From Escherichia coli (lineage in GTDB: Bacteria > Pseudomonadota > Gammaproteobacteria > Enterobacterales > Enterobacteriaceae), in the NCBI RefSeq assembly GCF_003334765.1, contig NZ_QOWT01000002.1: DNA of 64,000 nucleotides. One strand, 5' to 3'. The position numbers and the translations under genes were made by a program. Below the pieces are notes generated by a model. The model worked only from the letters and a program-made list of their open reading frames with translations. It was not told the origin of the DNA and made no database searches. How positions within the stretch are numbered: the first letter of the stretch is position 1; the number at the start of each line of letters is the position of its first letter. Shown here piece after piece: positions 34,659 through 42,128 of the stretch.

Positions 34659-35309
34659 TTATTCTTTTTTACCTGCCTGACGGAATGTCAGGTTGTAGCG
34701 GCAGTCGATGGTGAGTGGATGAAACCCCGCTTTCAACGGTTGAATACCGTGATAAAACAGCCGCGATTCACCGCCCCATACCACCACATCGCCATGTTCC
34801 AACAACAAACGTTTGAGCGGATCATTTCGTTTCAGGCCGCCAAATTGAAAAATCGCGGGTAAGCCCAGAGAAACAGAAACAATTGGCGCGCGCAGATCCG
34901 GTTCGTCTTTATCCTGATGCAGCGACAGTTTCGCGCCAGGAGCGTAGCGGTTGATAAGACAAGCATCTGGCTGGAAATCTGGATAGCCCGCCGCCGTAGC
35001 CGCACGTTGACATAAATTATGAAAACTCTGTGGCATGGCGGGCCACGGTTTATTTGTTTGCGGATCAATGGGCGAATAGAGATAACCTTGCCGATGGGTC
35101 GTCCAGCCCAGATGCCCACAGTTGGTCATCGCCACCGACATGGTATATCCCCCGGGGGTGACCATCTGGCGAAACGGCGACTGGCTGGCAACGTCATTAA
35201 TATCGCGGATCAGTTGCTCCGCAGCGTTAAAAGCAAAACGCCGTAAAATTACCGCACCAGCCGCCAGTGGCTCTTGCCACGGTTCAGCATCGGCAAACAG
35301 ATCCAACAT
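34659..35309 (-). CDS. alkB: Fe(II)/2-oxoglutarate-dependent DNA/RNA demethylase AlkB
   Basis: 216 aa; HQDKDE (His-x-Asp) and RLFYHGI motifs; start overlaps the ada stop. Confidence 0.95.
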   Translation of the reverse strand: MLDLFADAEPWQEPLAAGAVILRRFAFNAAEQLIRDINDVASQSPFRQMVTPGGYTMSVAMTNCGHLGWTTHRQGYLYSPIDPQTNKPWPAMPQSFHNLCQRAATAAGYPDFQPDACLINRYAPGAKLSLHQDKDEPDLRAPIVSVSLGLPAIFQFGGLKRNDPLKRLLLEHGDVVVWGGESRLFYHGIQPLKAGFHPLTIDCRYNLTFRQAGKKE

Positions 35310-36373
35310 TACCTCTCCTCATTTTCAGCTTCGCGGCGCAGCAGTTGCGCTTTACGCGACACGCCCCAGCGGTAACCGGAAAGTGTGCCATCACCACGGA
35401 CCACCCGATGACAGGGTATTATGATAGCCAGCTTGTTGGCGGCACAGGCGCTGGCAACGGCCCGTACCGCTTTCGGTTTGCCGATGGCGTTAGCCAGTTG
35501 CTGATAACTGACGGTTTCACCGCAAGGTATCGTGCGCAGTGCCTGCCAGACTTGTTGCTGAAAAGCAGTGCCGCGAATGTCCAGCGGTAACGTCAGCGGC
35601 GTATCGCGTTGATTGAGGCTGGCGATCACTTCACGCACATGTTGCTGAAACATCAGATCGGCAGGCGCGTTGTCGGCAGCGGGAAACATCTGCTGCAACT
35701 CGCTGATTAGTGTCGCGTCATCATCGCCCAGCAATATCGCGCAAATCCCCCGCTCGCTTTCTGCCACCAGGCAACGACCCAGCTCACAATCAGCCAGCGC
35801 GTAACGCACCGCCAGATTTTCGCCACCGTGACGGAATTGTTTAGCCGTCATGCCCAGCGTTTCGTCAGCTTTGCGATAGTAACTGCTGCTGTCGGGGAAT
35901 CCGGCGTTAAGAATAGACGTCGTCACGCTCTCCCCTTTCGCCAGCGATTCGCGCAAACGGCGAGCGCGCCAGGCCTGTTGCCAGGCTTTAGGCGTCATTC
36001 CGGTAGTCGCTTTAAACAACCGATGTAGATGAAATGGACTCATCGCCACCTGGTCGGCTAAGGCTTCCAGCGTTACAGGCGTTTCCTGTTCCAGCAGTCG
36101 ACACGCGTGGGTGATTTTATCCAACCGATGTTGCTGGGCATTGGCTTTTTCTGGCTGACAACGTTTGCAGGGGCGAAAGCCAGCGGCGAGTGCCTCGCTG
36201 GCATTTGCGTAGAAGGAGACGTTTTCCCGCAAAGCATGTCTGGCGCGGCAAGACGGACGGCAAAAGATGCCTGTGGTACGCACGGCGAAAACGAATTCGC
36301 CGTCGGCATTCGGGTCGCGGGCTAAGACAGATTGCCAGCGTTGATCGTCAGTTAAGCATGTGGCTTTTTTCAT
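35309..36373 (-). CDS. ada: Bifunctional Ada: methylphosphotriester methyltransferase/transcription activator and O6-methylguanine-DNA methyltransferase
   Basis: 354 aa; N-terminal Cys cluster FRPCKRCQPE; AraC-type HTH; C-terminal active site PCHRVV. Confidence 0.95.
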   Translation of the reverse strand: MKKATCLTDDQRWQSVLARDPNADGEFVFAVRTTGIFCRPSCRARHALRENVSFYANASEALAAGFRPCKRCQPEKANAQQHRLDKITHACRLLEQETPVTLEALADQVAMSPFHLHRLFKATTGMTPKAWQQAWRARRLRESLAKGESVTTSILNAGFPDSSSYYRKADETLGMTAKQFRHGGENLAVRYALADCELGRCLVAESERGICAILLGDDDATLISELQQMFPAADNAPADLMFQQHVREVIASLNQRDTPLTLPLDIRGTAFQQQVWQALRTIPCGETVSYQQLANAIGKPKAVRAVASACAANKLAIIIPCHRVVRGDGTLSGYRWGVSRKAQLLRREAENEER

Positions 36374-36440
36374 AATCAGCTCCCTGGTTAAGGATAGCCT
36401 TTAGGCTGCCCGGTCACCATCACGCAAAAACCAACAATCT

Positions 36441-36455
36441 TGCGCTTTAATTTTT
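36441..36455 (-). promoter_or_regulatory. Ada box of the ada promoter
   Basis: Minus strand reads AAATTAAAGCGCA (consensus AAANNAAAGCGCA) about 70 bp upstream of the ada ATG; overlaps the last codons and stop of apbE. Confidence 0.75.
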
Positions 36456-37502
36456 TTCGCTGACAAGGAAGCTTTTAAACTGTGGTGACATCCAGGTTTT
36501 AAAGCTATCGCCTTCTTTGGTGATCATATAAACCGCCAGCCCTTCCCGGCGAACAACCTCTTTAGCTTTCTCCGGCCCGAGTACCATCAAGCCAGTATCC
36601 CAGGCATCGGCTTCCAGCGCCGTCGGAGCAATCACCGTCACGGATACCAGATTGTGTTCGATGGGACGCCCGGTTTGCGGATCGATAACATGGGAAAGAC
36701 GTTTGCCGTCCAGTTCGTAATAGTTACGGTAGCTGCCAGAGGTGCTAATCCCATGACCGTTGATATCCACCACAGCCTGAACCGCGTTTTCTTTATCGGT
36801 TGGTTTTTGAATCGCTACCCGCCACGGCAGGCCTTCACCGTTCATACCACGGCTGTTCAGCGCGCCGCCCACCGACACCAGATAGCGGGAAATCCCTTCC
36901 TGCTCCATCAAGCGTGCCAAATGATCGGCCGCATAGCCTTCGCCGACGGTGGAGAGATCGACATATAAATCCGGCAGGTCTTTTTGCAGATATTGCTGAT
37001 GCGACTGATTGATGACCGTCAGGTGCTGTAAGCCGGTTTTGGCTTTCATCGCATCGATCTGTTCCTGGCTCGGAATTTGAACCGGCTGTTGTTCCGGGCC
37101 AAAGCCCCACAGATTCACCAGCGGCCCGACGGTTATATCCATCGCGCCATCGGTCTTCGCGCCAATGCGCAGCGAGGTGGTGACGATATCGGCCATCGCT
37201 TCACTTACCGGCCACGGCGATAAACTTTGCGAGTCGTTAAAGCGCATCAGCGCGGAATCTTTTTTATAGGTCGAAAGCAGCTGATCGTCGGCGTCCAGTT
37301 GGGTCTGAATCTTTTCTTTAAGTTCGGCGCTGCGTTTGGCGTCAATGCCCGGGATGCTGGCACGCCAGAAGGTACCCATAGTTTTGCCTTCAAGAACGGT
37401 AACTTCAGTAGCGTGGGTTTTGGCGGGTTGTGGTTTTTGATCGCAACCAACAAAGAAGAGCGCGGCAGCCAGCAGTGCCACGCGGGTAAAGCTTATTTCC
37501 AT
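36447..37502 (-). CDS. apbE: FAD:protein FMN transferase ApbE (lipoprotein)
   Basis: 351 aa; lipoprotein signal with lipobox LFFVGC. Confidence 0.93.
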   Translation of the reverse strand: MEISFTRVALLAAALFFVGCDQKPQPAKTHATEVTVLEGKTMGTFWRASIPGIDAKRSAELKEKIQTQLDADDQLLSTYKKDSALMRFNDSQSLSPWPVSEAMADIVTTSLRIGAKTDGAMDITVGPLVNLWGFGPEQQPVQIPSQEQIDAMKAKTGLQHLTVINQSHQQYLQKDLPDLYVDLSTVGEGYAADHLARLMEQEGISRYLVSVGGALNSRGMNGEGLPWRVAIQKPTDKENAVQAVVDINGHGISTSGSYRNYYELDGKRLSHVIDPQTGRPIEHNLVSVTVIAPTALEADAWDTGLMVLGPEKAKEVVRREGLAVYMITKEGDSFKTWMSPQFKSFLVSEKN

Positions 37503-37571
37503 ACGTGATTATCCTCATGCGAACGGTCGCAAGAGTACACCAAAAAACTGAGTTTGTACGCTGAAAACAAT

Positions 37572-37593
37572 GAAAAAAGGGCCCGCAGGCCCT
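37572..37593 (-). terminator. Rho-independent terminator of ompC
   Basis: Hairpin gggcc-cgca-ggccc preceded on the plus strand by AAAAAA, which is a T-tract after the hairpin on the minus strand. Confidence 0.85.
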
Positions 37594-37613
37594 TTGTTCG
37601 ATATCAATCGAGA

Positions 37614-38732
<1,119 letters not shown>

Positions 38733-38832
38733 TTATATGCCTTTATTTGCTTTTTTATGCCACTGCATACTGATTAACCCTCATTAATCAGTCGGCAAGT
38801 CCATTCTCCCCAAAAATGCAGAATAATCCAAC

Positions 38833-38896
38833 ACGAATATGATACTAAAACTTTTAAGATGTTTCATTTATCGCTATAGATGTTTCAAAATGTAAA
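38833..38896 (-). promoter_or_regulatory. OmpR-binding boxes C1-C3 of the ompC promoter
   Basis: Minus strand reads TTTACATTTTGAAACATCTA / GATAAATGAAACATCTTAAA / AGTTTTAGTATCATATTCGT, three tandem 20-bp OmpR-type sites, about 115-180 bp upstream of the ompC ATG. Confidence 0.75.
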
Positions 38897-39051
38897 TGCA
38901 AGGGAACTTTTTAAGATTATTGCGGAATGGCGAAATAAGCACCTAACATCAAGCAATAATAATTCAAGGTTAAAATCAATAACTTATTCTTAAGTATTTG
39001 ACAGCACTGAATGTCAAAACAAAACCTTCACTCGCAACTAGAATAACTCCC

Positions 39052-39144
39052 GCTATCATCATTAACTTTATTTATTACCGTCATTCATTTCTGAATGTCT
39101 GTTTACCCCTATTTCAACCGGATGCCTCGCATTCGGTTTTTTTT
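39052..39144 (+). ncRNA. micF: MicF antisense sRNA (represses ompF translation)
   Basis: 93-nt sequence GCTATCATCATTAACTTTATTTATTACCGTCATTCATTTCTGAATGTCTG...CGGATGCCTCGCATTCGGTTTTTTTT ending in an intrinsic terminator; divergent from ompC. Confidence 0.9.
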
Positions 39145-39455
39145 ACCCTTCTTTACACACTTTTCATTATTCTGTGCTACCACAGAAAAACTATAACGCT
39201 TGTTAACTATTTCACAAATAATTAACATCCGCATAATTTCCAGCAATCTTTGTTTATTTGCAATTATTTTTGTTGGGCTTTTTGTAGGTTATTTGTACAG
39301 CAAAATGGCGCTTGTACATCTATTTCCCCCAATGCAGGATGATAAATATCACGGGAGAATAGAGAATCATCAATCAGGTAAGAGTCTGGAATTTCACACT
39401 GTACCCTTTATACTGCCCTATCACTTCGCGAAGTTTTAACAGGTCATAAACACGA

Positions 39456-42128
39456 ATGCGTCAGAAAGAGACAACGGCCACGACCCGCTTTTCACTCCTA
39501 CCGGGGAGCATTACCCGCTTCTTTTTACTGTTGATCATTGTGTTACTGGTGACGATGGGTGTAATGGTACAAAGCGCCGTTAACGCCTGGCTGAAAGATA
39601 AAAGTTACCAGATTGTCGACATTACCCATGCTATCCAAAAGCGCGTCGATAACTGGCGTTACGTGACCTGGCAGATCTACGACAACATTGCCGCGACGAC
39701 CTCCCCCTCCTCCGGCGAAGGTTTACAAGAGACGCGCCTGAAACAGGATGTCTACTATCTGGAGAAACCACGCCGCAAAACGGAAGCGTTAATCTTTGGC
39801 TCTCACGACAACTCAACGCTTGAGATGACTCAGCGGATGTCCACTTATCTGGATACATTGTGGGGCGCAGAAAATGTACCGTGGTCGATGTATTACCTGA
39901 ATGGTCAGGATAACAGTCTGGTGCTGATCTCAACCCTACCCCTTAAAGATCTCACCTCCGGATTTAAAGAATCGACCGTCAGCGACATTGTTGATTCACG
40001 TCGTGCAGAGATGTTGCAACAGGCCAACGCCCTCGATGAACGCGAAAGCTTTTCTAACATGCGCCGCCTGGCCTGGCAGAACGGTCATTACTTTACATTG
40101 CGTACTACCTTTAACCAGCCAGGACATCTGGCAACGGTCGTGGCTTTTGATCTGCCGATTAATGATTTGATCCCACCGGGTATGCCGCTGGACAGTTTCC
40201 GCCTTGAGCCAGACGCGACGGCAACGGGAAACAATGATAATGAGAAAGAAGGGACGGATAGCGTCAGTATCCACTTTAACAGTACGAAGATTGAAATCTC
40301 CTCGGCACTCAACTCTACCGATATGCGCCTGGTCTGGCAGGTTCCTTATGGCACCTTATTGCTGGATACGTTGCAAAACATTCTGCTGCCACTGCTGCTG
40401 AACATCGGTTTGCTGGCGCTGGCGTTATTTGGCTATACCACATTCCGCCATTTCTCCAGCCGCAGTACAGAAAACGTCCCCAGCACGGCGGTCAATAACG
40501 AATTGCGCATTTTACGGGCAATCAATGAAGAGATAGTCTCACTGCTGCCGCTCGGCCTGCTGGTTCACGATCAGGAATCGAACCGCACTGTCATAAGTAA
40601 CAAAATTGCCGATCATTTGCTGCCGCATTTGAATCTGCAAAACATCACCACCATGGCGGAACAGCATCAGGGGATTATTCAGGCGACGATCAATAACGAG
40701 CTGTATGAGATCCGCATGTTCCGCAGCCAGGTCGCGCCGCGCACACAAATTTTCATTATTCGCGATCAGGATCGCGAAGTGCTGGTAAACAAGAAACTCA
40801 AGCAGGCGCAGCGTCTGTATGAGAAAAACCAGCAGGGGCGGATGATCTTTATGAAAAACATTGGCGATGCGCTGAAAGAACCCGCACAGTCCCTGGCGGA
40901 GAGCGCGGCTAAACTCAACGCCCCGGAAAGCAAACAACTGGCGAATCAGGCAGATGTGCTGGTGCGGCTGGTTGATGAAATACAGTTAGCGAACATGCTT
41001 GCGGATGATAGCTGGAAAAGTGAGACGGTGCTGTTATCCGTGCAGGATTTAATTGATGAAGTTGTGCCTTCAGTGTTGCCTGCCATCAAGCGTAAAGGTC
41101 TGCAACTGCTGATTAACAATCATCTGAAAGCACACGATATGCGCCGCGGCGATCGCGATGCCTTACGACGTATTTTGCTGCTACTGATGCAATATGCCGT
41201 GACCTCAACGCAATTGGGAAAAATCACCCTTGAGGTTGATCAGGATGAGTCCTCCGAAGACCGCCTGACGTTCCGCATTCTGGACACGGGAGAAGGCGTA
41301 AGTATTCATGAAATGGATAATTTGCACTTCCCGTTTATCAACCAGACCCAAAACGATCGCTATGGCAAGGCGGACCCGCTGGCATTCTGGCTGAGCGATC
41401 AACTGGCACGTAAACTGGGCGGTCATTTAAACATCAAAACGCGGGATGGGCTTGGTACACGCTACTCTGTGCATATCAAAATGCTCGCAGCTGACCCGGA
41501 AGTTGAAGAGGAAGAAGAGCGTTTACTGGATGATGTCTGCGTAATGGTGGATGTTACTTCGGCAGAAATTCGGAATATTGTCACTCGCCAGTTAGAAAAT
41601 TGGGGTGCAACCTGTATCACACCCGATGAAAGATTAATTAGTCAAGATTATGATATCTTTTTAACGGATAATCCGTCTAATCTTACTGCCTCTGGCTTGC
41701 TTTTAAGCGATGATGAGTCTGGCGTACGGGAAATTGGGCCTGGTCAATTGTGCGTCAACTTCAATATGAGCAACGCTATGCAGGAAGCGGTCTTACAATT
41801 AATTGAAGTGCAACTGGCGCAGGAAGAGGTGACAGAATCGCCTCTGGGCGGAGATGAAAATGCGCAACTCCATGCCAGCGGCTATTATGCGCTCTTTGTA
41901 GACACAGTACCGGATGATGTTAAGAGGCTGTATACTGAAGCAGCAACCAGTGACTTTGCTGCGTTAGCCCAAACGGCTCATCGTCTTAAAGGCGTATTTG
42001 CCATGCTAAATCTGGTACCCGGCAAGCAGTTATGTGAAACGCTGGAACATCTGATTCGTGAGAAGGATGTTCCAGGAATAGAAAAATACATCAGCGACAT
42101 TGACAGTTATGTCAAGAGCTTGCTGTAG
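39456..42128 (+). CDS. rcsD: Phosphotransfer intermediate protein RcsD (YojN) of the Rcs phosphorelay
   Basis: 890 aa; N-terminal TM segments and periplasmic domain; C-terminal HPt-like region; directly upstream of rcsB. Confidence 0.93.
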   Translation: MRQKETTATTRFSLLPGSITRFFLLLIIVLLVTMGVMVQSAVNAWLKDKSYQIVDITHAIQKRVDNWRYVTWQIYDNIAATTSPSSGEGLQETRLKQDVYYLEKPRRKTEALIFGSHDNSTLEMTQRMSTYLDTLWGAENVPWSMYYLNGQDNSLVLISTLPLKDLTSGFKESTVSDIVDSRRAEMLQQANALDERESFSNMRRLAWQNGHYFTLRTTFNQPGHLATVVAFDLPINDLIPPGMPLDSFRLEPDATATGNNDNEKEGTDSVSIHFNSTKIEISSALNSTDMRLVWQVPYGTLLLDTLQNILLPLLLNIGLLALALFGYTTFRHFSSRSTENVPSTAVNNELRILRAINEEIVSLLPLGLLVHDQESNRTVISNKIADHLLPHLNLQNITTMAEQHQGIIQATINNELYEIRMFRSQVAPRTQIFIIRDQDREVLVNKKLKQAQRLYEKNQQGRMIFMKNIGDALKEPAQSLAESAAKLNAPESKQLANQADVLVRLVDEIQLANMLADDSWKSETVLLSVQDLIDEVVPSVLPAIKRKGLQLLINNHLKAHDMRRGDRDALRRILLLLMQYAVTSTQLGKITLEVDQDESSEDRLTFRILDTGEGVSIHEMDNLHFPFINQTQNDRYGKADPLAFWLSDQLARKLGGHLNIKTRDGLGTRYSVHIKMLAADPEVEEEEERLLDDVCVMVDVTSAEIRNIVTRQLENWGATCITPDERLISQDYDIFLTDNPSNLTASGLLLSDDESGVREIGPGQLCVNFNMSNAMQEAVLQLIEVQLAQEEVTESPLGGDENAQLHASGYYALFVDTVPDDVKRLYTEAATSDFAALAQTAHRLKGVFAMLNLVPGKQLCETLEHLIREKDVPGIEKYISDIDSYVKSLL

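Follow-up and report, generated by a model that had tools for sequence, protein, structure and literature searches.

An Ada operator that shares the last codon and stop codon of apbE upstream of ada-alkB in Escherichia coli

The promoter of ada-alkB in Escherichia coli lies so close to the end of the upstream gene apbE that three connected questions arise: how much of its Ada operator is shared with apbE, what has kept the shared bases as they are, and whether transcription of apbE runs on into ada. The window analysed here, a 64-kb stretch (64,000 nucleotides) of E. coli DNA, carries on its minus strand the gene order ompC, apbE, ada, alkB, yojI in the ORF listing. The apbE coding sequence (36447..37502, minus strand; 351 codons plus stop; NCBIfam NF007774 ApbE equivalog, 725 bits, and K-12 annotation) is named ftp in the current K-12 annotation, its product ApbE being a FAD:protein FMN transferase. 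It is separated by a spacer of 73 bp from the ATG of ada at 36373 (ada CDS 35309..36373, minus strand; NF011964 Ada equivalog, 751 bits), and ada in turn overlaps alkB (34659..35309, minus strand; NF011930 AlkB equivalog, 380 bits) by one base, the stop of the former and the start of the latter meeting at 35309. Window positions 34268..39168 are identical to E. coli K-12 MG1655 2308300..2313200 (0 mismatches in 4,901 bases; a K-12 coordinate minus 2,274,032 gives the window coordinate), so that the published work on the ada promoter applies directly to this DNA. The apbE-ada junction itself was found in 5,422 of 5,426 complete E. coli genomes. A search for known RNA families found none at the junction, the only matches in 34000-39500 being to MicF.

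The Ada operator at the end of apbE

On the minus strand, positions 36455..36441 read AAAAATTAAAGCGCA. They contain the classical Ada box AAATTAAAGCGCA (36441..36453, minus strand), which is an exact match, running from 36453 to 36441, to the consensus AAANNAAAGCGCA quoted in the literature (PMC6505713, PMC3788762). It is the sole match on either strand of the window, where chance would give 0.10, and 10 of 100 shuffled windows had at least one. This older 13-mer has been superseded by a bipartite definition, AAT (the A box) and GCAA (the B box) placed 6 nt apart (PMC6505713, PMC3788762, PMC4437013), and the window has this form as well: AAT at 36452-36450, TAAAGC, and GCAA at 36443-36440, an arrangement present in 79 of 80 orthologous loci. 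Since AAT-N6-GCAA occurs eight times in the window, the short motif is not significant on its own; an Ada site is indicated by where the motif lies, by its identity to K-12 and by its conservation. Could the 13-mer nevertheless be a functionless chance occurrence? The shuffles and the eight short matches leave some room for this, but the site lies at the expected place upstream of ada, its sequence is that of the experimentally studied K-12 promoter and, in the form described below, it is invariant across 80 species. Position and conservation refute a chance origin, and we give it practically no weight. The first-pass annotation, which had taken this motif for the Ada box of the ada-alkB promoter, was right.

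How far the operator reaches into apbE can be read directly from the minus-strand junction, ...GTC AGC GAA AAA AAT TAA AGCGCAAGATTGTTGGTTTTTGCG... The AAA is the Lys350 codon (36453..36455), the A box AAT is the last sense codon, Asn351 (36450..36452), and the stop codon TAA (36447..36449) opens the 6-nt spacer that separates the two boxes, making up half of it and belonging to the A/T run that is read by Ada. The B box GCAA (36440..36443), followed by G in all 80 loci (GCAAG), is intergenic and extends one base past the interval 36441-36455 that had been annotated as the box. Counted on the classical 13-mer, 7 of the 13 bases lie within the apbE ORF including its stop codon (the last base of Lys350, the AAT of Asn351 and the TAA), 4 of them in sense codons; the remaining 6, AGCGCA, are intergenic. 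The earlier claim that the box sits on the last codons and stop of the co-oriented apbE therefore holds for these 7 bases and fails for AGCGCA. Likewise, the idea that the promoter is embedded in the end of apbE is correct only for that half of the operator which lies upstream, made up of an A-tract, AAT and the A/T pairs contributed by TAA. Everything else is in the spacer, outside apbE: the B box, the conserved -35 region, the -10-like hexamer (36408..36403) and the start site as inferred below.

The operator described here, like the ada-alkB promoter to which it belongs, was known before; its overlap with apbE is real, partial and conserved. The searchable open-access papers make no mention of the overlap with the apbE stop codon, and none of them covers both the ada promoter and apbE. 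It follows directly from the annotated coordinates, and the arrangement is ordinary in kind; textbooks cover both the Ada box and the ada promoter, and no new kind of element is involved. Binding by methylated Ada and alkylation-responsive activation are documented in the literature for the identical K-12 sequence (PMC4437013, PMC3788762, PMC6505713), and the contacts are known: Ada Arg45 touches the A box and the adjoining downstream A/T pair, Arg71 touches the following two A/T pairs, and GCAA is read by the helix-turn-helix residues F114, H115 and R118 (PMC6505713, PMC3788762, PMC4437013). We are accordingly highly confident that this is the operator through which methylation induces the ada-alkB promoter, its upstream half being placed on the AAT and TAA of apbE. 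In this mechanism, Ada becomes methylated on Cys38 when it repairs a methylphosphotriester; the methylated protein then binds AAT-N6-GCAA, its N-terminal domain reading AATTAA and its helix-turn-helix reading GCAA, and brings RNA polymerase to a core promoter whose -35 is poor and whose CAnnnT -10 lies 31 bp past the B box. With only 73 bp between apbE and ada, AAT and TAA carry the upstream half of this operator, and these six bases have a double duty: they terminate ApbE and they form the A/T run read by Ada. They are thus frozen in evolution, and we infer that the cause of the codon constraint is Ada binding.

Conservation among the Enterobacteriaceae

A scan with the Ada protein, limited to one genome per species, gave 80 loci whose Ada is 64-96% identical to the query. 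They come from genera that include Escherichia, Citrobacter, Salmonella, Kluyvera, Trabulsiella, Kosakonia, Enterobacter, Lelliottia, Leclercia, Klebsiella, Raoultella, Pseudocitrobacter, Superficieibacter and Yokenella, among others. In every one of the 80 species apbE is directly upstream of ada and co-oriented with it, and a single [A/C]ATTAAA..GCAAG is found at the apbE stop codon. In 79 of them this is AATTAAA, the exception being Enterobacter asburiae (locus L035), with CAT TAA. The stop codon is TAA in 80/80 and the last sense codon AAT in 79/80, AAC never being used at this place; as the 80 species are related and such counts are not independent, the argument for a constraint is the contrast with variable neighbouring sites. 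Phenylalanine codons a few positions upstream in apbE vary freely between TTT and TTC (53/27, 39/41 and 24/55), the other listed asparagine codons of the apbE tail are AAC, and the residues that precede the final asparagine differ widely (SEKN, SDKN, GGKN, REQN, GEPN and others).

A cause at the level of the protein might be imagined, a C-terminal asparagine being required by ApbE itself. In the wider ApbE family, sampled as 128 full-length proteins from clusters of <50% identity, the C-terminal residue is asparagine in only 8 of the 128, and the tails differ in both length and sequence; on this ground and on that of the exclusive use of AAT, such a cause was rejected. No ada follows apbE at two distant loci (ApbE 49% and 46% identical), one of which retains the upstream porin gene. 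The simplest reading is that AAT TAA is probably held in place by a need for Ada binding at the DNA level and not by the ApbE protein. With AAT TAA fixed in 79 of 80 enteric species, the junction offers a small example of a regulatory site that constrains both synonymous-codon and stop-codon choice.

The conservation of AAT TAA also favours the bipartite definition of the box, with its A and B parts, over the 13-mer. Only Escherichia and a small number of other loci have the classical core AAAGCGCA, most genera having AAAAAGCAA instead, so that the 13-mer consensus is not itself the conserved unit; this distribution agrees with the A box/B box definition.

Several loci depart from the common pattern in other respects. 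The apbE-ada gap is 227 bp in Citrobacter sedlakii (L023) and 234 bp in Klebsiella indica (L078), against 72-83 bp elsewhere, the excess in both being an insertion of about 155-160 bp downstream of the box and the hexamer and before the ada ATG. In Leclercia adecarboxylata NCTC13032 (L081, 1370..2425) the apbE frame is apparently broken, tblastn covering only residues 1-213 in one frame, and the C-terminal junction ...GCG AAT TAA AAAGCAAG is intact; this could be a pseudogene or an assembly error.

Core promoter, transcription start and related Ada-dependent promoters

Downstream of the operator, an alignment of the junction from 78 species resolves into a series of conserved blocks: the invariant AATTAAA, GCAAG, a GG followed by a T5 tract, CAnnnT (36408..36403), TA..CTT (36396..36390) and the GGAG of the ada Shine-Dalgarno sequence (36380..36383, minus strand). 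The GG and T5 tract belong to a conserved GATTGnnGG + T5 segment (36426..36439, minus strand) that includes the poor -35 region and gave no sigma-70 hit. The distance from GCAA to CAnnnT is exactly 31 nt in 79 of the 80 species, and the K-12 aidB promoter has the same design, AAT-GTTTTA-GCAA, 31 nt and then CATACT. Because this spacing is fixed in 79/80 species and shared by aidB, we assign CAGCCT (36403..36408, minus strand) as the -10-like hexamer. With a -10 of CAGCCT, a -35 region of GTTTTT and no match to a sigma-70 consensus promoter anywhere in 36000-37800, the core promoter is weak and activator-dependent. Such an absence is expected, since RNA polymerase binds the ada promoter only together with methylated Ada (PMC4437013).

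The start of ada transcription would then fall at about 36396 (36394..36398, minus strand), 6-8 nt downstream of the conserved hexamer and roughly 23 nt before the ATG. The classical box would then span -56..-44, with the A box occupying -56..-54 and the B box -47..-44. Landini et al. 1998 reportedly placed the Ada site at approximately -60 to -40. The database start of ada presumably corresponds to window 36401, 5 nt from ours; the overlap with apbE is the same whichever start is taken. In published tiling-array data the non-induced apbE segment ends at U00096.2 2308447 (PMC6505713), so that, after conversion of the coordinates, the boundary between non-induced and induced signal is at window 36393/36392, near the inferred start. 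The sequence TATCCT (36396..36391) was also considered as a -10 and rejected: transcription would then start within the Shine-Dalgarno sequence, leaving the Ada site near -62, whereas CAnnnT has the fixed 31-nt spacing. A full-text literature search with the promoter sequence string returned no match.

The fourth base of the hexamer (window 36405) is polymorphic. CAGCCT is the sequence of K-12 and of the window; CAGACT is carried by further E. coli strains (MB53, CP52E, O157) and by other species of the genus. Searches specific to each allele matched 1,187 of the 5,426 genomes with C at this base and 4,088 with A. The single-cell studies of noisy Ada induction considered here were done in the K-12-derived strains AB1157, MG1655 and MC4100.

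The K-12 MG1655 ada promoter, at the same locus, with 100% identity over 4.9 kb and with both forms of the motif, is no different as an element from the one described here. Like ada, aidB, the other Ada-dependent promoter of this design, has AAT-N6-GCAA and a hexamer of the CAnACT type exactly 31 nt past the B box, and it follows a co-oriented gene (yjfC) whose end lies right at the box; unlike ada, its box begins 2 nt past the TAA stop of yjfC and hence abuts the gene without overlapping it. The base before GCAA is A in aidB and C in ada, and this A has been associated with an approximately 10-fold lower affinity for Ada (PMC3788762, citing Landini and Volkert). The aidB site (L085 140..156, equivalent to K-12 NC_000913.3 4414189..4414205) thus makes aidB a second Ada-dependent promoter that is packed against the end of the preceding gene. 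Its -10 hexamer is contained in an imperfect 12-bp inverted repeat, GGCAGTGACCAT ... ATGGTGACTGCC (L085 180..207). At alkA, the Ada site overlaps the -35 region. This gene has the same regulator and belongs to the same regulon as ada, and its core AAAGCAA resembles the AAAAAGCAA of most non-Escherichia ada loci, but the mode of action of RNA polymerase and Ada differs there (PMC4437013). The Salmonella ada box, quoted as GAATTAAAACGCA (PMC3788762), is placed on the same AAT TAA junction of apbE, two Salmonella enterica subspecies (L024 and L025) reading gat aag AAT TAA AACGCAAG; its core is AACGCA, compared to AGCGCA here, and the Salmonella Ada has been reported to be a weaker activator (PMC3788762). 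More generally, the junction is like other promoters of compact bacterial arrays in that a regulatory site shares the end of a co-oriented upstream ORF with no terminator between them, and unlike the general case in that the shared bases are the last codon and the stop codon only.

Read-through from apbE and other interactions between the two genes

The first-pass annotation had seen no terminator between apbE and ada, and in this it was borne out: a pattern scan found no intrinsic terminator between the apbE stop and the ada ATG, and no stable hairpin abuts the T tract of the spacer. The only convincing terminator of the ompC-apbE-ada-alkB array is the one after ompC, upstream of apbE (37576..37595, minus strand), with an 8-bp stem AAAGGGCC/GGCCCTTT followed by a T run; in the scanned region as a whole there were 4 terminator-like sites, with 2.2 expected by chance. 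A weak pattern match, TCGCCGGGAAGGGCTGGCGG followed by TTTATATGAT, forms a terminator-like hairpin inside apbE (36533..36552, minus strand), about 85 nt before the stop codon. The conserved G and T5 tract was itself a candidate for an apbE intrinsic terminator. It was rejected, there being no stable abutting hairpin in E. coli or in 73 of 74 species: the best E. coli hairpin in the 40 nt before the tract has -4.7 kcal/mol and ends 8 nt short of it, and a hairpin abutting the tract and at least as stable as -8 kcal/mol was found in 1 of the 74. Folding of the 197-nt junction was not unusual in comparison with shuffles (z = -1.56). As no intrinsic terminator separates the two genes, read-through is physically possible.

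Does it then contribute meaningfully to ada-alkB expression, as had been proposed? Transcripts from the apbE promoter would have to cross the stop codon and the ada promoter, and besides the interval free of terminator-like sites there are two observations in favor of this: the apbE tiling-array segment continues 54 nt beyond the stop codon, to window 36393 (PMC6505713), and published models assume a basal expression of P_Ada whose source was left unchecked (bioRxiv 551911). The array boundary, however, may simply mark the switch from non-induced to induced signal, and Rho-dependent termination or RNA processing could stop read-through transcripts. The supplements of SMRT-Cappable-seq and of the Adams 2021 3'-end mapping have no apbE or ada entries. 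Against a meaningful contribution stand the protein levels, basal Ada being about 1 molecule/cell with 20-30% of cells having none, and about 80% of cells lacking AlkB (PMC8643705, bioRxiv 551911). Since the ada ribosome-binding site is predicted by folding to be largely open in the E. coli read-through RNA, efficient read-through from a constitutive gene should yield far more protein than this. Nor do the two genes co-vary in published data, in which MNNG induces ada, alkB and yojI together and leaves apbE unchanged: apbE RNA went from a log2 of 10.34 to 9.98 and ada was among the most strongly induced genes (PMC6505713). We therefore regard a meaningful share of ada-alkB expression from apbE as unlikely. 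The proposal that read-through could feed ada-alkB survives insofar as the sequence permits it and loses its force with regard to yield; such read-through may occur and, on the published data, would be small at best. On the far side of the operon, one MNNG-induced tiling-array segment spans ada, alkB and yojI (PMC6505713), and a minus-strand terminator-like site was not found in the alkB-yojI spacer (34583..34659).

A basal Ada of about one molecule governs the cell-to-cell variation in mutation rate under alkylation stress, and the terminator-less junction means that the origin of this basal Ada could be tested against apbE read-through. The rare basal ada-alkB expression seeds the positive-feedback adaptive response and determines its stochastic delay. 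That it may stem from occasional read-through, and not from the unactivated P_ada, is a speculation to which we assign somewhat less probability than to the proposal of a meaningful share. If it were true, transcription of a neighbouring gene would determine how noisy the alkylation response is, and the conserved apbE-ada junction would be a functional coupling in addition to the shared operator and stop codon.

Interference could also operate in the reverse direction, with Ada and RNA polymerase bound at the box hindering the polymerases that are finishing apbE and giving less ApbE or non-stop mRNAs. The bound site lies on the last apbE codons, so that a roadblock would precede the transcription of the stop codon, and the apbE signal after MNNG is, as noted, slightly lower. 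However, that change was classed as 'similarly expressed' by the authors of the study (PMC6505713) and activators are usually displaced by elongating polymerases, so this reading seems to us quite improbable. Less probable again is that ada translation is insulated from apbE by an anti-Shine-Dalgarno segment of the spacer, pairing with the ada ribosome-binding site in read-through RNAs only; complementarity of this kind is present in several genera. Accessibility of the ribosome-binding site was computed from partition functions for read-through RNAs, for RNAs started at the promoter and for shuffled controls. The predicted unpaired probabilities for the window are 0.44 in the read-through RNA, 0.49 in the promoter-started RNA and 0.38 in the shuffled controls, and the medians for all species are 0.38, 0.46 and 0.41 (the last with shuffled upstream sequence). 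With no effect either in E. coli or in the cross-species medians, insulation of this kind was rejected for E. coli. What speaks for it comes from six Kluyvera loci, in which the promoter spacer and the ada ribosome-binding site can pair in a long perfect helix (e.g. UUCCUCCUUUUGG / CUAAAAGGAGGAG). In the read-through RNA, and there only, this lowers the predicted unpaired probability of the site to about 0.0-0.04, compared to about 0.5-0.65 otherwise; weaker cases occur in Pseudocitrobacter and Klebsiella. The Kluyvera helix (L026, L030, L033, L036, L040 and L066) lies some 25-70 nt past the apbE stop codon and is lineage-specific.
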